Below, in pieces: positions 24,999-34,112 of a stretch of 64,000 nucleotides of DNA. Position numbers and translations under genes: made by a program. Numbering within the stretch: position 1 is the first letter of the stretch; every line of letters begins with the position of its first letter. The notes under the pieces were generated by a model, which was not told the origin of the DNA, did not search any database, and saw nothing but the letters and a program-made list of their open reading frames with translations. This DNA comes from Turneriella sp. (GTDB taxonomy: Bacteria > Spirochaetota > Leptospiria > Turneriellales > Turneriellaceae): positions 4,704,001 to 4,768,000 of the forward strand of contig CBDIID010000003.1 in NCBI GenBank assembly GCA_965279515.1. The letters run 5' to 3'.

Positions 24999-25065
24999 CG
25001 CCATTGACATCTCCCTGATAGGGCGAAAAAAATCAGTTTTCATGGGAACCACGTTCTCAATGCAA

Positions 25066-25082
25066 GTGATAATGATTCTCAC
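25066..25082 (+). promoter_or_regulatory. Fur-family box upstream of exbB
   Basis: G-TGATAAT-G-ATTCTCA-C, a 7-1-7 inverted repeat one mismatch from TGATAAT-N-ATTATCA. TTGACA at 25004. Confidence 0.8.
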
Positions 25083-25121
25083 AATGACTCGGGTTTCGAT
25101 TCTGGCCGTGGCGGCAAACAG

Positions 25122-25790
25122 ATGAACGAACTCTTCAAAAAAAGTGCTCTCTTAGGCGATGTCTGGGTACTCTGGATTCTCCTTTTTGCCAGCATACTTT
25201 CCGTGGCAGTCATGATCGATCGCTGGCGCATTTTCCGCATGAACCGGCTGGATTTCCCCGCGTTTCTGGAAAAGCTGCGCAATTTTCTTGAAGCCGATAA
25301 CACCCCGGGTGCCCTCAAACTCTGCGCAGAGCATGACGTACTCGAGTCGCGGGTGGCGCTCACAGGGCTTAAAAACTTTCACCGCGGCGCTGCCTCTGTC
25401 GAAGAGGCGATGAAATCGGGCCTGGTGCTCGAGCGCAGCAATTTTGAAAAAAATCTGATTATACTTTCTACCATGGGCAACAATGCGCCCTTCATCGGCC
25501 TCTTGGGTACAGTACTCGGCGTTATCAAAGCTTTCCACGATCTGGGTGTTGCCGGCAGTTCGGGAGTTTCCGTCGTCATGTCGGGTATCTCCGCCGCGCT
25601 CATCGCCACGGCATTCGGTATTCTGCTGGCGATACCGGCGGTTATCGCGAACAACTTTTTTCAAACCCGCCTGAAACGCTCTGTCGTGAATACCCAGAGC
25701 CTTATCCACCTGATGCAGGTTTACCTGCGCTCAGAGGGCAAGCCTGCGCATGGAAAACATACTCCCAGGCATGAGAAGGTTAGTGCATGA
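25122..25790 (+). CDS. exbB: ExbB/TolQ/MotA proton channel protein
   Basis: APFIGLLGTVLGVI.AF and ISAALIATAFGI..AIPA. Confidence 0.92.
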   Translation: MNELFKKSALLGDVWVLWILLFASILSVAVMIDRWRIFRMNRLDFPAFLEKLRNFLEADNTPGALKLCAEHDVLESRVALTGLKNFHRGAASVEEAMKSGLVLERSNFEKNLIILSTMGNNAPFIGLLGTVLGVIKAFHDLGVAGSSGVSVVMSGISAALIATAFGILLAIPAVIANNFFQTRLKRSVVNTQSLIHLMQVYLRSEGKPAHGKHTPRHEKVSA

Positions 25791-26185
25791 ACGTTGATAC
25801 CGAAGAAGATGGCGTTGTCACCGGCATCAATGTCACGCCGCTCGTTGATATTACGCTGGTTTTGCTTATTATCTTTATGGTCACTGCCCACTTCGTAAAC
25901 GATATCGGCGTTAAGGTGCAGTTGCCCAAAGCAGCTGCGGCCGAGAACACACCGACACCCGCGCTTACCGTCACTGTCGCCAAAAACGGCGATATCATGC
26001 TGATGTCACAGAAGGTGGATCTCAACGGCCTCAAGGCTAACATGGCGCGTGAGGCGGCCCTTAACCCCGGTGTGCGCGTCGTTGTCGCCGCCGACGAAGC
26101 CCTCATCTATAAAAATGTCATCAAGGTTCTCGACGTGATCAAAGGAGCAGGCGTAACGCGCGTTGCGCTGTCATCGGAGAAGTAA
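25787..26185 (+). CDS. exbD: ExbD/TolR biopolymer transport protein
   Basis: INVTPLVDITLVLLIIFMV with the conserved Asp; AD...Y..VI.VLD. Confidence 0.92.
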   Translation: MNVDTEEDGVVTGINVTPLVDITLVLLIIFMVTAHFVNDIGVKVQLPKAAAAENTPTPALTVTVAKNGDIMLMSQKVDLNGLKANMAREAALNPGVRVVVAADEALIYKNVIKVLDVIKGAGVTRVALSSEK

Positions 26186-26800
26186 ATGTTAACAAGCATC
26201 TACAGCAAAATTGCATCGACGGCACTCTTGAGTTCCATGGCACTCCATGCAACGGCCGGCGGGTCATTCTATCTTTGGGTGGTGATGAGCCGCCACGGTA
26301 ATGTTCAGGAAATCGAACTGACTTCCGCGCCGCTCGTGCCGCGCAGTGCGAACCAGCAAAATGCAGAATCCAAAGACGACGACTGGTTTCTTGTGCAGAA
26401 GCACCGCAAGCTGGCGAAGGTACCCGACCAGAAGAAAGAGGTGCCGAAAGAGGCCAATACCTGCAAAGGTAAATGCGCCGAAGGCAGCGCGGGTCTCGGC
26501 GATTTTGTACCTGCCAGCGATGCACACCGCAAGCCCAAATGGGTGGGTAATTTTATCACTCCGAACGATTATCCGCTGCTGGCAAAACAGCAGGGCAAAG
26601 ACGGCCGCGTGGTGCTCAGCGTCATCATCGATAATGAGGGCAGGGTGCGCGACGCGCAGCTGCTCGAGGGCAGTTACGAAGCGTTAAACGAAGTTGCGCT
26701 CGCCAAGGTACGCGAAGCGGTCTTTTCACCGGCATACGACAAGGACGGCAATGCCGTTGCCTGCAAGGTCAGATTACCCATCCGTTTTGAGTTGAAGTAG
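26186..26800 (+). CDS. tonB: Short TonB energy transducer
   Basis: SxxLH anchor; C-terminal YP..A...G..G.V.L...ID..G.V and PIRF.L. Confidence 0.88.
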   Translation: MLTSIYSKIASTALLSSMALHATAGGSFYLWVVMSRHGNVQEIELTSAPLVPRSANQQNAESKDDDWFLVQKHRKLAKVPDQKKEVPKEANTCKGKCAEGSAGLGDFVPASDAHRKPKWVGNFITPNDYPLLAKQQGKDGRVVLSVIIDNEGRVRDAQLLEGSYEALNEVALAKVREAVFSPAYDKDGNAVACKVRLPIRFELK

Positions 26801-26847
26801 GCTGAATTTTAATATTTCCCAATAACTAGTAGAAGAATCAGGAGTAA

Positions 26848-29061
26848 ATGAAAATGAGTTTCAAAATCATTAAAGGCGCGTCGCTTGTGACGCTTGTGGC
26901 GGGAGTGTTATTCGCGCAAAAGGTCAATCCCCCTGTGCCGGCAAAGCCCGCAGCGGCGGCCAAGGCGTCCGACACAACGGGGAAGCCGGCGGCTGAGGCA
27001 GCGATAAAACCTGTCACGGAAGCTCAGATGGATGAAGTCCTGGTGCAAGCGAATTCACGCGTGACCGGGTCGAAAACTGACGTGCCTGTGCACGATACTC
27101 CGGCGTCTATTATAACCGTGCCAAAAGAAATTATCGAAGACCAGATGGCTGTCGACATGAATTCGATGGTGCGCAACGTGAGTGGTGTAAACCCACAACT
27201 CGGTGGCGGTTATGGTTTTGCGGATAGCTATACGATTCGTGGTCTCAACATGCGTTTTCTCCGCGACGGTTTTGCTGACGGCGCCGCATTTAACGGTTAT
27301 ATGCGCACCATGACGGACGTTGAAAGCGTCGAAGTACTGAAAGGGCCGGGGTCTGCTCTTTATGGGCGCAACGAACCGGGCGGTGCTATCAATATCACGA
27401 CAAAGAAACCATTGGACAGGTTTGCTGCTTCGGGCGAGGTTATGGCTGGGTTTTGGAATACCTATCGGGTCGCGGCGGATGTGGGTGGCCCTCTCGTTGA
27501 TAATAAGTTGCTGACGCGTTTTAACACCGCTTACTTTAAGACAGACGGTTACCGTGGCCTGTCCCGGGAAATTATTGAAGTATTGCCGACGGTAACATGG
27601 AACTTCAATGATAAACACGCCTTAACGCTCGACTACGATTTCCGCAGAATAAAAACCACACCCGATAACTATGGTATTCTGTTTGATGCGAATAATGCGA
27701 TAGCGGCCGTTAGTCCTTCGACGACATATTACTCACCGCAGAACAACGCACTCCAAACTGTAAATAGAATCTCCGCCCTCTATGAGGGTAAATTCTCAAA
27801 CCAGTTCAAATTGCGCTCAGCGATCATCTATGATGACCGTGATATATCTTTTGTGCGGAATGCGAATGTGGCCGTCAGCGCATTGGGTGTGGTGTCCGGT
27901 CGCGACTTTCGTGTGCAACGCGACAAAGCAAATTCAGTATTGCAACAGAATGAAGTTGTCCTGAAATTTTTGACAGGTGAGCTTGCCCATACGGTTCTCG
28001 CCGGTCTCGAATTTGAATATGCACGCGTTGCGTCGGTCAGAGATAGTTATGGAAATATCACGGGTGCCGCTGCCGCAACTGCAACGAATCTGCCAAACCT
28101 GAGTTTACTGAATCCGATTCGGACAGAGAGCGATTACACTGCCTATACCAGGAATGCAGGTGGTTCCTTCGATCGACTTATCGAAACGTATACCTATAGC
28201 GCTTATGCTCAGGAGCAGGTCACGATCACCAAGCAGATCAAGGCTCGAGTTGGATTGCGCTGGGATCATGTGGATGCTCAGGATGCGGGGACGCAAGGTA
28301 CATCGGTGCGGACGATTGGCATGGGCCGAGATTTGATCAGCTGGCAGACGGGCGCCGTCTATCAACCCTGCCAACCGGTCTCCTTTTACGCTGGCTATTC
28401 CGAAGGGAAGTTTATCGCTATCAACACCGAGGCAACAGCACTGTTCGTAACTCCGGAAACTTCAAGACAGGTTGAGCTCGGCAATAAAACAACCTGGTTC
28501 AAAGATCGCCTTCAGACAAATCTCGCCCTCTTTCAGACCACACGTACCAATTACCCGATCACCGATACCAGCGGTAACGTGAATGTCTTTAACGGCAAAC
28601 GAGTTATCAATGGCGTCGAACTGGATATTTCCGGTAATCCATTTGCCGGATTCTGGATCATTTTCAACACAACATATATGGACGCGAAAATCGCCGGTGA
28701 CGAAACGGTCACCGTAAGCGGCACCCGGTACAATCTGGATGGCAAGATTCCGCAGAATATCCCTGAATATGCCGGATCACTTTGGGCGACTTACCAGATT
28801 CAAACGGGGTTCTTTAAAGGCTTCGGCTTTGGTGGTGGTCCGACCGTTAAAGCGGGTACTTATGTGGATGCGCGGAACTTACTTCGCATTCCGGGTTACA
28901 TTGTCGCCGATGCCGTATTGTTTTACAAGCGTGAAAACTGGCAGGTACAGATCAACTTCCGCAACATCACCAACGAAGTCTATTATGCAACACCCACCTT
29001 TGCCGGCGCACTGCCCAGCGAGCCGTTCAATTTTACGGTTTCCGCGAAGGCGCGGATTTAA
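26848..29061 (+). CDS. TonB-dependent (siderophore-type) outer-membrane receptor
   Basis: Signal peptide, DEVLVQA TonB box, plug (TP.SI..., IRG, VEVLKGPGSALYG..EPGG.IN..TKKP), barrel ending N.TNEVYY. AGGAG RBS. Confidence 0.93.
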   Translation: MKMSFKIIKGASLVTLVAGVLFAQKVNPPVPAKPAAAAKASDTTGKPAAEAAIKPVTEAQMDEVLVQANSRVTGSKTDVPVHDTPASIITVPKEIIEDQMAVDMNSMVRNVSGVNPQLGGGYGFADSYTIRGLNMRFLRDGFADGAAFNGYMRTMTDVESVEVLKGPGSALYGRNEPGGAINITTKKPLDRFAASGEVMAGFWNTYRVAADVGGPLVDNKLLTRFNTAYFKTDGYRGLSREIIEVLPTVTWNFNDKHALTLDYDFRRIKTTPDNYGILFDANNAIAAVSPSTTYYSPQNNALQTVNRISALYEGKFSNQFKLRSAIIYDDRDISFVRNANVAVSALGVVSGRDFRVQRDKANSVLQQNEVVLKFLTGELAHTVLAGLEFEYARVASVRDSYGNITGAAAATATNLPNLSLLNPIRTESDYTAYTRNAGGSFDRLIETYTYSAYAQEQVTITKQIKARVGLRWDHVDAQDAGTQGTSVRTIGMGRDLISWQTGAVYQPCQPVSFYAGYSEGKFIAINTEATALFVTPETSRQVELGNKTTWFKDRLQTNLALFQTTRTNYPITDTSGNVNVFNGKRVINGVELDISGNPFAGFWIIFNTTYMDAKIAGDETVTVSGTRYNLDGKIPQNIPEYAGSLWATYQIQTGFFKGFGFGGGPTVKAGTYVDARNLLRIPGYIVADAVLFYKRENWQVQINFRNITNEVYYATPTFAGALPSEPFNFTVSAKARI

Positions 29062-29075
29062 TCAGGAGACGACAT

Positions 29076-29747
29076 ATGAAAAAACTCATCCTTACCGGAT
29101 TCTTGGCACTGCTACCCGCCACGCTCTCAGCGCACTACATCTGGCTTGAACGTGACGGCGACGACGAGGCGCGCGTCTACTACGGCGAAATCCAGGACGG
29201 CGAGCGCGAGGTTTCGCCCGGAAAGCTCGACAAAATCAAAGGCCTGAAAATCTTCACGACCGATAAGACCAGCACGGCGAAAGAAGTGGCGCATAAGAAA
29301 AACGCAAAGCACTTTACTGCAACCGGCGTTAAGGGAAGTGAATTCGTCGTCGCCTCGGCGCTCGACGTGCCGGTCACCGACATGAAAAAATACAACTGGG
29401 GCATGGTGAAGCCGAACTACTATGCCCGTTTCGGCGCGCGCACAGCCGCTACCGCTGTGAAACCGGTCACGACGCTCGACATTGTGCCGGCTGCGGGCGG
29501 CGACAATGAAATCCAGGTCTTTTTCCAGGGTAAACCCCTGGAAGGTGAGAAGGTCATGCTCTATGCTCCGAACACCTGGATGAAAGAATATAAAACCGAT
29601 AAGAATGGCAAAATCAAGATGGATGTCCCGTGGGCAGGGCAATACGTAATCGAAGTGATCCATACCGAAAAAACGCCGGGTAAATTCGAAGGTAAAGACT
29701 ACGAGTCGGTGCGCCACCGCGCAACCTACACCTTCATTAAAAAGTGA
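29076..29747 (+). CDS. DUF4198-type periplasmic metal-binding protein
   Basis: Signal peptide followed by A|HYIWLE, LDIVP, TDKNG, W.G.Y, H.ATYTF. Confidence 0.75.
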   Translation: MKKLILTGFLALLPATLSAHYIWLERDGDDEARVYYGEIQDGEREVSPGKLDKIKGLKIFTTDKTSTAKEVAHKKNAKHFTATGVKGSEFVVASALDVPVTDMKKYNWGMVKPNYYARFGARTAATAVKPVTTLDIVPAAGGDNEIQVFFQGKPLEGEKVMLYAPNTWMKEYKTDKNGKIKMDVPWAGQYVIEVIHTEKTPGKFEGKDYESVRHRATYTFIKK

Positions 29748-29774
29748 TTTTCTCTCGAGTGTTAGGAGGGTGAG

Positions 29775-30476
29775 GTGACCGTCAATACCTGGCACCGGCG
29801 CATCGCCATTACGGCCGTTCTCTTCTTGGCGGTGACGGCGCTGACCGGAATTCTCTGGGCCTATGCGCCGCACCTCTACTTTAAAGAAGGCTACCTTCAG
29901 AAAAAGAGCGGTGCTGCGCAGAAACCCCTGACCGCCGCCAAGGTCTCCGTAGCGGACGCGCTGGCATCGGCGATCGCCGTCTTTAAAACCGAGAAGGGCA
30001 TTCTCAGCGCGACGCTGCGCGCCGAGGCCGACGATCTGTTCTACGAAGTGCAGCGCAAAGAGGGAAAAGAGTATTCTTCAGTGCTCGTCGATGCCATCTC
30101 CGGCGATGTCGTAAGCCCGCTGGGTGAAGAGGCCGCGATCAAAATCGCCGCGCAGTATGTCGTGGGAAATCCCCCTTTGAAAAAGGCCGAGGCGCTGACT
30201 GGGTATAAGCACCGCAACGGTAAAAAATTTAAGGCCGCTTATAAAGTCGCTTTCGCCGCACCGGGAAATCCCGAGATTTTTATCGATCGTAACTCGGGAC
30301 TCATTCTCGAAGAGAGCGATAATGCGCGCAGCTTTCATTTTTGGGTGATGAAATTGCACCAGCTGCAGTTTTTCGGTACCAAGAAGGAACTCACCATCAT
30401 ACCGGGGCTCGCGCTGATCTTTTTGGTGATCACTGGCACCATCATGTGGATTCGCCGCTACCGCGCTGCGGGATGA
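29775..30476 (+). CDS. PepSY-domain / PepSY-associated TM protein
   Basis: WHRR...ALTG, two PepSY-like units (VDA.SG.V; ID..SG.I), LH, VITG..MW. Confidence 0.8.
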   Translation: MTVNTWHRRIAITAVLFLAVTALTGILWAYAPHLYFKEGYLQKKSGAAQKPLTAAKVSVADALASAIAVFKTEKGILSATLRAEADDLFYEVQRKEGKEYSSVLVDAISGDVVSPLGEEAAIKIAAQYVVGNPPLKKAEALTGYKHRNGKKFKAAYKVAFAAPGNPEIFIDRNSGLILEESDNARSFHFWVMKLHQLQFFGTKKELTIIPGLALIFLVITGTIMWIRRYRAAG

Positions 30477-30511
30477 CACAGCTGTCTATCCGCTTGACCA
30501 CCTGAGTTAGA

Positions 30512-30528
30512 TTGAGATTCAATCTCAA
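30512..30528 (+). promoter_or_regulatory. Fur-like inverted repeat upstream of the porin
   Basis: Perfect TTGAGATT-C-AATCTCAA; TTGACC at 30494. Confidence 0.7.
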
Positions 30529-30567
30529 ACTCATTTGAGGCACGATCTGGTATTTGGAGTTAGGTAT

Positions 30568-31902
30568 ATGAAGAAATTCCTCATTATAATGTTGGCAGCC
30601 GGCGCCGCGTTGGCCGCACAAGGCACCAAAAAAACAAAAGATGAAAAACCGGCTGCGGCAGAAACTTCCACCGCGAATGAACAAGACCGTAAAATCGAGA
30701 TACTCGCGCAGGAAATTGAAAAACTCAAGGCCGGGAAAGATCTCTTTCCGCAGGCCAAAGAGCAGGGGCGTTATGGTCTCGGCCCCGCCGCTTCCAAGGT
30801 CTATGAAATCAACCAGGGCGTATCGATAGGCGGCTATGGCGAGTTTCTCTACCAGCGCTTTGCGCGTACCAACCAGGCAGGTAACGACGCGAATAAGAAC
30901 GACGAGTTCGACACGCTGCGCACCGTATTTTACTTTGGTTATAAGTTTAACGATATGATCGTGTTTAACTCTGAGGTGGAGATCGAGCATGCGGGGCGTA
31001 CGGCGTCGACGTCTAGCAACACGACTGCGGGGGGCGCTTCGCACAATCACGCTGTTTATAAACCCGAGGTTTACGCCGAATTCGCCAATATCGACTTCAT
31101 GCTGCATCCCATGCTCAATATCAAAGCCGGCCTCATGTTGGTGCCGATGGGGATTTACAACGAGATGCATGAAGCGCCGACATTTCTGGCGACGACGCGT
31201 CCCCTGACAGAGCAGCGTGTGATTCCAAGCACGTGGCGCGAAAATGGCGCGGGTATTTTCGGGCAGATCTGGGATATTACCTACAAGCTCTATGCTGTGA
31301 CGAGCCTCGATGCCAAGAGCAGTGTCGACGGCTTTAACAGTCAGGGCCTGCGTGGTGGGCGCCAGAGCGGGCAGAAGGCGATTTCAAACGAGTTTTCGGG
31401 CGTCCTGCGTTTAGATTATGTCGGCATTCCGGGCACCAGCTTCGGCGCCTCCGGTTTTTGGGGAAAAAGCGGTCAGGCCGATAACGATCCGCATGAAACG
31501 ACGATTGTCGACGCCCATGCCGATGTGCGCGTTAAGGGGCTCTACCTGCGCAGCGTTATTGCGTTTTCTCAGGTCACGGGCGCTAACCGATTAGCCTCGG
31601 GCGGTGTTGGCCTTGCCGATGCCATGTACGGCGCGTACATAGAAGTCGGCTACGATATTTTCCGGTTCTTCAACATCAACCAGGAACTTTTTCCGCATAT
31701 CCGTATCGAGAAAATCGATACGCAGTATAAAGTTGCCTCGGGTAACCGGTTTGATGCCCAGTATGAACAGAACGTGCTGACTTTGGGCGTCGCCTATAAG
31801 CCGATACGCCAGATATCCGCCAAAATCGATTATTCGTTCCTGAGCAATAAGGCCGATACCGGGGTGAATCAATTGAATTTCGCGCTGGGTTATTTGTTCT
31901 AA
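30568..31902 (+). CDS. OprO/OprP-like outer-membrane porin
   Basis: Signal peptide, coiled coil, IGGYGE, FNSEVEIEH, P.G.YNE.HE, VIPSTWRE.G, C-terminal GYLF. Confidence 0.78.
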   Translation: MKKFLIIMLAAGAALAAQGTKKTKDEKPAAAETSTANEQDRKIEILAQEIEKLKAGKDLFPQAKEQGRYGLGPAASKVYEINQGVSIGGYGEFLYQRFARTNQAGNDANKNDEFDTLRTVFYFGYKFNDMIVFNSEVEIEHAGRTASTSSNTTAGGASHNHAVYKPEVYAEFANIDFMLHPMLNIKAGLMLVPMGIYNEMHEAPTFLATTRPLTEQRVIPSTWRENGAGIFGQIWDITYKLYAVTSLDAKSSVDGFNSQGLRGGRQSGQKAISNEFSGVLRLDYVGIPGTSFGASGFWGKSGQADNDPHETTIVDAHADVRVKGLYLRSVIAFSQVTGANRLASGGVGLADAMYGAYIEVGYDIFRFFNINQELFPHIRIEKIDTQYKVASGNRFDAQYEQNVLTLGVAYKPIRQISAKIDYSFLSNKADTGVNQLNFALGYLF

Positions 31903-31940
31903 CCGCAGCGGTCCCTCTTTCAGCTTGACGTCCTGTCAAA

Positions 31941-31959
31941 AATGAGAATGACTCTCATT
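31941..31959 (+). promoter_or_regulatory. Fur-like box upstream of the FMN-binding gene
   Basis: AA-TGAGAAT-G-ACTCTCA-TT; TTGACG at 31925. Confidence 0.72.
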
Positions 31960-31978
31960 CGGGTTTTGCCCGCAGGCT

Positions 31979-32524
31979 GTGACTGAATTGCGACGCATTT
32001 TTAATTTATGCTTTCTGTTTTCCGTTTTTTGTGCCGCAGTACACGCGCTGACGCTCAAAACTTTTCCGGACGCGATTCAAGGGGTCTATCCCGCCGCCGA
32101 TAACGTTAAACGGCAAACGCTCTATCTCACAGCCGATCAGTTGCGTCGCGCCGAACAGTCTGCGGGAGAAAAAATCGACACCGCGCTGCTCGTGGTATAC
32201 CGCATCACGCGTGCGGGGCAGCTTCTGGGGTGGGCCTATCTCGATACGCACCGGGTGCGGACATTAAACGAAACCATTTTGATCTGCGTCGACGGTGAAG
32301 AGCGGATTTCACATGTCGAGGTTCTGAACTTCAATGAACCGCAGGAGTATATTGCCTCGAGCCGTTTCCTCGAACTTTTTAAGAACCGCCGTTTGGACGC
32401 TCAGTTATCGCTGAAGGGGAGTGTGCCGACGACGACGGGCGCCACATTGACGTGCAGTGCGATTACTACGGCGGCAAGGCGAGTGCTTGCGCTGCATAAA
32501 ATTGTCCTGGAGCAGAAGCGCTGA
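31979..32524 (+). CDS. Exported FMN-binding (flavinylation target) protein
   Basis: Signal peptide; TTGATLT matches the [S/T]GA[S/T] flavinylation motif; HRVRT and F.EP.EY. Confidence 0.8.
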   Translation: MTELRRIFNLCFLFSVFCAAVHALTLKTFPDAIQGVYPAADNVKRQTLYLTADQLRRAEQSAGEKIDTALLVVYRITRAGQLLGWAYLDTHRVRTLNETILICVDGEERISHVEVLNFNEPQEYIASSRFLELFKNRRLDAQLSLKGSVPTTTGATLTCSAITTAARRVLALHKIVLEQKR

Positions 32525-33174
32525 TGCGGAGGCTTATGGAAAGGCTGCGGTTGCGCCGCTCGGGGAAGCATTACCGCAAACCAGCATCGGGCAGCAGCAG
32601 GGGTTCGGCAAACTTATCCCCGCGATTCTTATGGGTCTTCTATGCGGCAGGTTATCTGTCCGCCTATACCGGGTTTTTATTGCTGTTTTTTTTCCGTAAG
32701 CCGCCGGATTTCTATCCGTTATGGAAACAGTTGCTGGTGAAGTCGCATATCGTCGGGGTGGGTATCTGGCTTTTTACCTTCGGTATGCTTTTCAGCATTC
32801 ATGTTATTCCACAGCTCAAGAGCGGCATGAGGGTCGGCCGCCGGTCAGGCATCTTTTTGGTCGTCGTTTTGGTTCTCATGAGCCTGACGGGTTATGGTAT
32901 TCAGGTGATGCCGACGAGTTGGGGCATTGACCTAAGCCGTTACAGCCATCTCGTCACAGGCATGGGCTTCACGGCTCTCTTTGTCATGCACCTTGTTCTG
33001 GTGAAACCCCGCCTGCGCCTAGCGCTGGTTTCGGCGACAGCAGTGAGCTTTATGTTGGCGGCGCCGTTTTTTTTACTCAAAGTGGAGAATGTTTTTCCGG
33101 ATGAGATTCAGCTAAAGCCGGTATCGGCCGTGGATATGCCCGCCGCCGACAGTGCCCTCGTAAAAAAAAATTAG
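32524..33174 (+). CDS. Five-TM membrane protein with four membrane His (cytochrome b-like, DUF4405-like)
   Basis: SH...IH and SH...MH pairs in TM2 and TM4; SG..L...TGY motif; ends right after an A9 run. Confidence 0.7.
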   Translation: MRRLMERLRLRRSGKHYRKPASGSSRGSANLSPRFLWVFYAAGYLSAYTGFLLLFFFRKPPDFYPLWKQLLVKSHIVGVGIWLFTFGMLFSIHVIPQLKSGMRVGRRSGIFLVVVLVLMSLTGYGIQVMPTSWGIDLSRYSHLVTGMGFTALFVMHLVLVKPRLRLALVSATAVSFMLAAPFFLLKVENVFPDEIQLKPVSAVDMPAADSALVKKN

Positions 33175-33200
33175 TTTCTGACCATCTGACATCACGCATT

Positions 33201-34112
33201 TTGCCAGCAATGGGGACGCTCATCGAGCTGAGGCTTGTATGCCCCGATACCGCAACCTGTGAGCGCGGTTTCAGCGGCGCGGCCGATACGCTGGGTCTCA
33301 TCGATCGTCAAATGAGCCTTTACCATGAAAGCGAACTGACTCGGATTAACGCCGCCGCCGGTTCGTTGGATCCGATGCAAGCCGTGAGTATCGATACGGA
33401 GCGGGTCATAGCGACCGCATTGTTGGTCGCAAGCCGTTCGGAAGGATATTTCGATCCGACCATCGCCCCACTTCTGGATTTGTTCCGCTTCTATGAAGTG
33501 GAATCGGGAAGTCAGGTCGCAGAACCCGGGCCTGATAAAATTGCTGATGCCCTGGACCTCGTCAATTTCAGAAATCTGAGACTCGTTGGTCACCGCGCGG
33601 GGCTGATGCGCAGGGGAATGAAGATGGATCTGGGGGGGATCGCGAAGGGGTATGCATTGGATATCATTGCCCAAAGATTCAGAATGCTCGGACTGAGGCG
33701 TTTCTCCCTGAATTTTGGCGGGCATTTATTGGCGGCCGGTATCAGTCATGAAACTACCGTTCGTCATCCCCTGACGGGCCGGCCCTGGCTGGCCTGCCGT
33801 ATCAGCCGCGGGTCACTCTCGGTGTCGGCCCAAAATGAGCGTTTTGTGCGAACGGGCACGAAGCGCATCGGGCATATTTTCCATTCCATGTCCGGCGCAC
33901 CTATTGAACCTAATCAGATTATTGCAGTCTATCATGAATCGGCGATGCTCGCCGACGCCTGGTCCACAGCCCTGTTCTTTGCAGATGAGCGAAAATTTTT
34001 ATCCTGGGCGCGGCAAAATCAACTGATTGCTTACCGGTTGTCAGCTTTGAATATGGTTGGGCGTTCAGCCGCGGCGGAAACCGCGGATGTTTGTAAGCTG
34101 CTCGCTGGCTGA
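33201..34112 (+). CDS. apbE: FAD:protein FMN transferase ApbE (no signal peptide; probably the frameshifted C-terminal part of a fusion)
   Basis: AMGT, SEL.RIN, FDPTI.PL, DLGGIAKGYALD, NFGG, GHI, ADAWSTALF. Confidence 0.88.
   Translation: MPAMGTLIELRLVCPDTATCERGFSGAADTLGLIDRQMSLYHESELTRINAAAGSLDPMQAVSIDTERVIATALLVASRSEGYFDPTIAPLLDLFRFYEVESGSQVAEPGPDKIADALDLVNFRNLRLVGHRAGLMRRGMKMDLGGIAKGYALDIIAQRFRMLGLRRFSLNFGGHLLAAGISHETTVRHPLTGRPWLACRISRGSLSVSAQNERFVRTGTKRIGHIFHSMSGAPIEPNQIIAVYHESAMLADAWSTALFFADERKFLSWARQNQLIAYRLSALNMVGRSAAAETADVCKLLAG

Follow-up and report, generated by a model that had tools for sequence, protein, structure and literature searches.

Do ten co-oriented genes that combine TonB-dependent uptake with a porin, a binding protein for flavin mononucleotide (FMN), a four-His membrane protein, and the flavin transferase ApbE form a single system, and how would an ApbE without a signal peptide reach the periplasm? 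These questions are raised by a locus of Turneriella sp. (contig CBDIID010000003.1, positions 4,704,001 to 4,768,000; the whole of this 64,000-nt stretch is referred to as the window). A preliminary description had proposed a self-contained metal-starvation system that imports a metal chelate and reduces it in the periplasm via membrane heme and covalent FMN. Its gene list was right: all ten open reading frames (ORFs) were found, from 25122 to 34112, and a Pfam check returned MotA_ExbB, ExbD, TonB_C, Plug/barrel, DUF4198, PepSY_TM plus PepSY, FMN_bind, and ApbE, matching the names given. Missing from it was the frameshift junction between the four-His protein, a predicted cytochrome, and ApbE. 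Our reading is that there are two modules, genes 1–6 (module A) and genes 7–10 (module B, the cassette), and that within module B slippage on a poly-A run would yield a membrane-anchored periplasmic ApbE; as a whole, we consider it probable.

The first question was addressed by comparing gene order among relatives. DUF4198 homologues were detected in eight of 19 family genomes, and exbB, exbD, tonB, the receptor gene, the DUF4198 gene and the PepSY gene formed the same operon wherever the relatives' contigs show it. The cassette followed PepSY in none of the seven relatives with downstream sequence; in the closest one, G009, PepSY led directly to DJ-1 and kefC with no cassette between. The porin was found in 10 of the 19 family genomes, usually in a cassette adjoining a gene that, from its sequence, we take to be fructose-bisphosphatase-like. 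Both halves were present on different contigs in four genomes (G008, G013, G014, and G015). The TonB half occurred in genomes with no ApbE at all (G007 and G011, 99% complete, as well as G009 and G017), and four genomes had the cassette with no DUF4198 match, including G016 (one contig, 99% complete). Six module A queries gave no match in 79 listed cassette loci, in a single-query tblastn search that missed a divergent TonB-like gene of G004. Among 14 genomes of the genus, the ten-gene layout was found in this genome only.

Because the cassette follows PepSY in none of those seven relatives and module A occurs without ApbE, genes 1–6 and 7–10 are two independent modules behind Fur-type boxes. 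A single ten-gene system, in which a TonB-imported chelate is reduced by the cytochrome, FMN protein, and ApbE, is improbable. Here the halves are adjacent, co-oriented, and preceded by the same operator, and clusters of PepSY, DUF4198, ApbE, and TonB genes are known (available text of PMC8238504), but the cassette has boxes of its own. The porin, FMN, and ApbE genes were largely not found with the TonB part in relatives, apart from looser links that count against two modules: a different TonB receptor and a TonB-like gene divergent from the cassette in G015, and a TonB-like gene divergent from it in G004. The proximity of a PepSY_TM gene to ApbE and FMN_bind holds in this genome only, and a conserved PepSY_TM–ApbE linkage was not found in relatives. 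Module A likely imports a ferric siderophore and frees the iron with DUF4198 and PepSY_TM, with no flavinylation involved; its receptor scored 243 bits against the TIGR01783 siderophore receptor model (cut-off 223.5). By analogy with VciB/FoxB, the PepSY_TM protein is likely the module's own reductase.

The second question concerns the end of the cassette. There, 1 nt separates a run of nine A from the stop of the cytochrome frame, and the ApbE frame is open upstream across this run. We compared 13 junctions: all nine genus genomes with the gene and all four metagenome contigs spanning the junction. The other three of the seven metagenome loci do not span it (L146 and L147 are cut and L148 looks chimeric), and G429 and G328 were uninformative. 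The run comprised nine A in 11 cases and 10 A in two near-identical contigs, ApbE was in the −1 frame in 13 of 13, and the stop codon lay 0–5 nt after the run. The flanks of the junction diverge; the A-run does not. It takes three phases relative to the codons, in different subclades. In the genome background, 43 sense-strand runs of at least nine A were counted in 3.86 Mb of long ORFs, and A-run counts fell 6–9-fold from length eight to nine, as opposed to about 3-fold per step below. This depletion matches the nine-base threshold for A-runs in many bacteria given in the available text of PMC1088944, which also describes 9-A slippage in Thermus thermophilus dnaX and fusion-making slippage in mxiE.

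Long reads are error-prone in homopolymers, but there is next to no chance of an assembly error here. The same offset recurs in 13 independent assemblies, whose concordance in effect refutes an error, and short-read contigs of two studies bear out the sequence of the window (of which X1 and X3 may be the source); the contig from the second study covers the run unchanged and with no gap.

The ApbE domain scored 165.9 bits against PF02424 (cut-off 25.6) and was the single match in the genome. Alignment to 5mgy, 4xgw, and 6nxi placed the G-I-A-K-G and A-D-x-x-S-T motifs and a His in register; we take these to include the catalytic residues. The ORF was thus present as first described, but not with the start called for it (TTG at 33201): the coding signal starts at the A-run, ahead of every start codon. 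No signal peptide of its own, lipoprotein-type included, was found for ApbE in any of 11 split genes. A hydrophobic leader in the ApbE frame was present in none of the 11 (maximum KD10 0.46), in all 17 outgroups (at least 1.69), and in all four fusions examined in this way. All 11 split genes encode an Arg five residues ahead of the MGT motif, at a point that precedes every start codon, and 16 of 17 outgroup ApbEs share this residue. A Shine–Dalgarno match was absent from all 11 split apbE genes. These counts and the tree leave out 13 of 45 loci with no usable ApbE start, and G018 and L144 are absent from the tree.

The split ApbEs are intact and 39–92% identical (median 45% among the 11). They form one clade (support 100/99), and in a seven-member clade the split state has been kept along branches of up to 0.6 substitutions per site. 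Six natural in-frame cytochrome–ApbE fusions were also found: those of G004, G423, G424, and G425, genomes from the same taxonomic order, and the closer proteins P0127 and P0128 (52% and 44% identical), whose linkers continue as the −1 frame of the window does after the run. As the last two nest inside the split clade, the split and in-frame states interconvert.

Taken from these sequence patterns, slippage at the 9-A run is very probable. If RNA polymerase added one A, or if ribosomes shifted by −1, translation would run on from the cytochrome into ApbE. From most transcripts just the cytochrome would be made, the slipped fraction would give a cytochrome–ApbE fusion in catalytic amounts, and fusion to the fifth helix of the cytochrome would place ApbE in the periplasm, where its exported substrate is. 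In Salmonella, a periplasmic location of ApbE is essential (available text of PMC12052999). RNA polymerase slippage is favored because the run has at least nine A, varies in phase, and comes with no shared stimulator; ribosomal shifting is favored because the direction is constantly −1, by the rule in section 10 of PMC3711429. Of the two, transcriptional slippage appears slightly the more plausible.

Some observations weigh against slippage. No stimulator was seen in the window, where the downstream 70 nt fold worse than shuffles (z +1.18), nor a conserved one, z falling below −1.8 in just two of the four relatives folded. Since about 40 other genes put up with a 9-A run in frame, slippage may be inefficient here. 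The ATG of MGT lies 17–35 nt after the cytochrome stop, within reach of re-initiation, and cytosolic, signal-less ApbEs exist (available text of PMC12052999). Finally, the nesting of in-frame forms in the split clade would also suit a tolerated defect or switching at the DNA level.

This last idea, that one A was lost, perhaps repeatedly, from an in-frame Lys-rich fusion and that ApbE is now made by rescue slippage or in a subpopulation carrying one more A, with no regulatory benefit, deserves weight but is unlikely. The three run phases in different subclades and the position of P0127 and P0128 would fit it, as would the Lys-Lys-Lys linker of P0128; the linker of P0127, Lys-Arg-Lys, cannot be a pure A-run. 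Neither does a defect or switch sit well with 13 of 13 DNA junctions being out of frame, both of those with 10 A included, or with a split state kept over the long branches described above. Separate translation of apbE from the ATG of MGT, in which case a cytoplasmic enzyme would flavinylate its substrate ahead of export and the A-run would encode just terminal lysines, has little to recommend it. The distance of that ATG from the stop would allow it, and truncated ApbEs work in vitro, besides the known cytosolic ones (available text of PMC12052999). However, the conserved Arg lies upstream of the ATG, the Shine–Dalgarno match is lacking, and fewer than one in 100 Lys-Lys pairs can sit in a 9-A run (43 runs vs 6105 pairs in long ORFs). 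Separate translation would also leave the fifth helix and the linker unexplained, and the substrate has a signal peptide.

The four-His character noted for gene 9 in the preliminary description was borne out: H75, H93, H142, and H156 are invariant in 43 of 43 homologues. A core of four helices is followed by an extra fifth transmembrane helix, which none of the four outgroup cytochromes examined has, and the positive-inside pattern puts the tail in the periplasm. Neither gene 9 nor the porin gene (gene 7) of the window matched a Pfam family. PF14358 (DUF4405) gave no match for the window protein and matched nine of the 43 homologues at E up to 0.1 (best 7.8e-4); PF01292 matched 10 of the 43 (best 1.5e-8). 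Di-heme cytochromes b were among the top fold matches of the gene 9 model, which matched HyaC, FdnI, and CybB with Z of 10.3 (root-mean-square deviation 4.4, 133 aligned), 9.8 (4.3, 140), and 9.7 (3.2, 127). Against the assignment, fold matches with Z of 9.7–10.9 stay under the ~13 reached by chance among helical bundles. A Foldseek search with the model gave no match at E 0.001 or better, and the best ESM Atlas score, 0.79, is a lead only. We predict a di-heme cytochrome, for which heme binding is highly likely.

Two variants of this gene were seen among relatives. In G014 (L029:12347-12879), the cytochrome gene itself is broken, by decay or assembly error, which counts against our reading. 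In G422 (L155:1435-1920), the cytochrome ends in a short hydrophobic helix, with no adjacent ApbE or porin gene.

The FMN protein, which is RnfG-like (E 6e-6), carries a signal peptide and an FMN_bind domain with the [ST]GA[ST] motif in the form TGAT. The motif was present in 60 of 71 homologues, the rest having variants such as AGAT and TGST. It is the predicted ApbE substrate, with FMN on the motif Thr. As FMN_bind has a single match in the genome, and both enzyme and substrate are therefore single-copy, flavinylation of one protein would be a direct read-out of slippage. A complex prediction for the cytochrome and the FMN protein scored 0.01.

The porin was modeled as a 16-strand barrel (pLDDT 79.7). 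Its fold matches were general porins and OprP (2o4v, highest query TM-score 0.55), PF07396 was matched by two homologues, and a PDB sequence search with porin and cytochrome profiles gave nothing significant. OprP and OprO are the nearest 16-stranded porins, but in place of their arginine ladder the porin here has invariant acidic and His residues: E136, E138, and E140 alternating on one strand, E171, and H201 and E202 in the long third loop. In the model, these residues suggest a cation-selective pore. The His loop of the porin (GGASHNH), which the preliminary description had treated as a clue to the substrate, is uninformative because it is absent from 33 of 33 aligned homologues; it is a strain-specific insertion.

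Which metal the locus responds to was judged from its operators. The 7-1-7 palindromes described before genes 1, 7, and 8 were found. The consensus and matrix used for such boxes were drawn partly from the locus's own sites, so conservation of the boxes in relatives serves as the independent test. A possible fourth box over the receptor start codon has a two-mismatch site at the same place in five relatives, and it is better conserved there. Genome-wide, two perfect and nine one-mismatch 7-1-7 sites were counted against 0.04 and 1.76 expected by chance. Elsewhere in the genome, the matrix ranked sites before a heme-uptake cluster, a ferritin-like gene, and an Fe-S protein gene. The heme-uptake cluster that shares the box encodes PNPOx, HutX/HemS, an ABC transporter (FecCD), HmuY, and a TonB receptor. 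A sigma-70 and terminator scan returned results at chance level.

The genome has three Fur-family genes. A palindrome of another spacing, with a 4-base center, precedes a COG0523 gene and a gene for a His-rich membrane protein, next to a further gene of the Fur family. We take the COG0523 gene and the His-rich one to be genes for zinc or nickel, and this second palindrome class is likely a Zur/Nur operator. Because the same 7-1-7 box precedes heme-uptake and iron-storage genes while the COG0523 and His-rich genes carry the other spacing, the boxes of the locus are most likely iron (Fur) operators. Judged from the sites, binding by a Fur-family protein is predicted and iron control of the locus is highly probable. 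The proposed metal-starvation control was thus supported for iron, the box being common to the heme-uptake cluster and bacterioferritin; a Ni/Co/Zn substrate, which had been left open, is unlikely on the same grounds and with the His loop unconserved. Against iron control, the feoAB genes of this genome have no visible 7-1-7 box upstream.

Other boxes were noted. The heme-uptake cluster, which includes a lipoprotein gene (G000:C3:3997873-4005405), has three 7-1-7 boxes. In relatives, the cassette occupies the chromosomal site of this cluster, suggesting that iron modules are swapped at that position. A further strong box precedes an 85-aa Cys/His-containing ORF with no Pfam family (G000:C3:3717260-3717540), and two more strong ones precede the relatives' porin genes (L032:446 and L030:2723).

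Beyond the family, a scan of species genomes gave at least 568 candidate stretches (557 confirmed) and at least 79 cassette loci. The 79 listed loci, four of which duplicate relatives already counted, belong to Gemmatimonadota, Acidobacteriota, Planctomycetota, Spirochaetota, and other phyla. All four genes were present in 63 of the 79 listed, and the FMN gene was adjacent in 76–78; many of the 16 incomplete loci are cut by contig ends, and L095, L106, and L108 seem to lack a gene. In 31 of the 79 listed loci, Fur-type boxes lay inside the cassette or immediately ahead of it, with 34 matches in 297 kb vs six in 716 kb of flanks. Neighbors among the 79 listed loci included Fur genes (nine), FTR1 (four), and FeoB (three). 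In the large sister family f2, the porin was found in none of 53 and the cytochrome in none of 114 sampled genomes.

The cassette also varies in composition. In nine of the 79 listed loci (e.g., L107:6091-6645), an unrelated membrane protein, in which three His are invariant, stands in for the cytochrome; it had no Pfam match and no profile match to gene 9. The cassettes of G010, G013, and G014 (L028:9894-12298, L029:9258-11691, and L034:788-3254) contain a di-heme CCP_MauG-like gene downstream of a porin gene of a more divergent type; Pfam was run on the G013 copy of the CCP_MauG-like gene, and G013 has both porin types in tandem. A distant porin relative occurs in an imelysin and DHOR cluster of G003 with a box nearby (L035:131-3635), and the porin gene of G004 is frame-broken, by decay or assembly error (L033:10806-10911).

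What module B would do follows the flavin and heme redox role in the periplasm that had been proposed and that was supported for genes 7–10. Iron would enter through the porin with no need of TonB. Electrons would cross the inner membrane by way of the predicted di-heme cytochrome and reach covalent FMN on the RnfG-like protein, and this flavoprotein would reduce Fe(III) for FeoB-type import, feoAB being located elsewhere in the genome. We favor Fe(III) reduction as the function of module B, with modest confidence. Another redox role under iron limitation, such as an iron-sparing carrier, peroxide defense with a MauG-like partner, or outward export of electrons or flavin via the porin, is unlikely, though it has points in its favor in the CCP_MauG-like genes inside three cassettes, the presence of the cassette in Geothrix fermentans, and the small share of listed loci with an adjacent ferrous importer. 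Against such a role, the invariant residues of the porin are mostly acidic or His and fit a cation path, a distant porin relative stands beside imelysin and DHOR, and the operators are of iron type. More tentatively still than Fe(III) reduction, slippage could act as a secretion and dosage switch. The cytochrome would be made in stoichiometric amounts, a minority fusion would be the cell's sole route to a periplasmic flavin transferase, and the slippage rate would set flavoprotein maturation in an undescribed, TonB-independent iron-reduction pathway of porin, flavoprotein, and cytochrome. Features of the locus are collected in Table 1.

Table 1. Genes, operator sites, and the predicted slippage site (window positions unless preceded by G000:C3)
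Feature	Position	Strand	Remarks
Fur-type 7-1-7 operator before exbB	25067..25081		palindrome; perfect match in 5/5 relatives with upstream sequence
exbB (module A)	25122..25790	+	PF01618
exbD (module A)	25787..26185	+	PF02472
tonB (module A)	26186..26800	+	PF03544, TonB_C
Weaker possible fourth box over receptor start codon	26847..26865		position weight matrix score 14; inferred
TonB-dependent siderophore receptor (module A)	26848..29061	+	Plug and TonB barrel; TIGR01783 above cut-off
DUF4198 periplasmic protein (module A)	29076..29747	+	PF10670
Short PepSY_TM protein (module A)	29775..30476	+	PF03929 and PF03413
Fur-type operator before porin gene	30513..30527		perfect palindrome; relatives' porin genes have boxes too
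Predicted 16-strand porin with invariant acidic/His residues (module B)	30568..31902	+	no Pfam family
Fur-type operator before FMN-binding gene	31943..31957		palindrome; relatives' FMN genes have boxes too
Exported RnfG-like FMN-binding protein, TGAT motif (module B)	31979..32524	+	FMN_bind
Four-His cytochrome b-like membrane protein, fifth transmembrane helix and periplasmic tail (module B)	32524..33174	+	no Pfam family
9-A run, predicted slippage or −1 frameshift site between cytochrome and ApbE	33162..33170	+	13/13 junctions
ApbE flavin transferase domain, −1 frame, no signal peptide (module B)	33171..34112	+	PF02424
Palindromes with 4-base center	G000:C3: 3719533, 3723648, 3724849, 864339, 149105		second palindrome class

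Cytochrome systems linked to flavinylation are known, and the cassette is a variant of them; the recoding, likewise, adds a new instance to a known mechanism. In the available parts of Huang et al. (bioRxiv 10.1101/2024.03.13.584918) and Meheust et al. 2021 (PMC8238504), those systems likewise have ApbE, a flavinylated extracytosolic protein, a four-His membrane cytochrome, and a link to iron assimilation or Fur; the cytochrome types tied to flavinylation there are DUF4405-like (Huang et al.), and PepSY-like and MsrQ-like (PMC8238504). DUF4405 is described with six helices, whereas the cytochrome here has four core helices and reaches DUF4405 weakly. Unlike those systems, as far as the available texts describe them, the cassette includes a dedicated porin, which these texts do not mention, and would join ApbE to the cytochrome by a frameshift. 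Our literature search turned up neither the cassette nor a frameshift in ApbE; the supplementary cluster tables of Meheust 2021 and the Huang preprint may list the cassette. The Caulobacter CC3059–CC3063 Fur operon and DUF4198/TonB-receptor clusters (available text of PMC3751524) are similar in having a Fur-repressed DUF4198 beside a TonB receptor or ApbE, but they differ from the locus here, where no DUF2271 substrate or sulfite-reductase flavoprotein is encoded among the ten genes and where module A occurs with no ApbE in four relatives.

Known poly-A slippage genes (T. thermophilus dnaX, Shigella flexneri mxiE, and magnesium chelatase clusters) likewise have nine A, two overlapping ORFs, and a longer fusion product, according to the available text of PMC1088944 and PMC3711429. 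In-frame fusions among homologues occur in the magnesium chelatase clusters, as here. The gene family would be new among them, ApbE being unmentioned in the available text of PMC3711429 and PMC5009743. Unlike in known slippage genes, the shift here would give a membrane anchor and an export route to a modification enzyme whose substrate is in the same operon.

If slippage is confirmed, another gene family would join the short list of bacterial genes that need it, and the job would be an unusual one for slippage: providing the membrane anchor and export route of an enzyme. Annotation pipelines would label this ApbE as truncated or as cytoplasmic. By linking ApbE directly with the four-His protein, the in-frame fusions give genetic support to the cassette as one electron-transfer unit.

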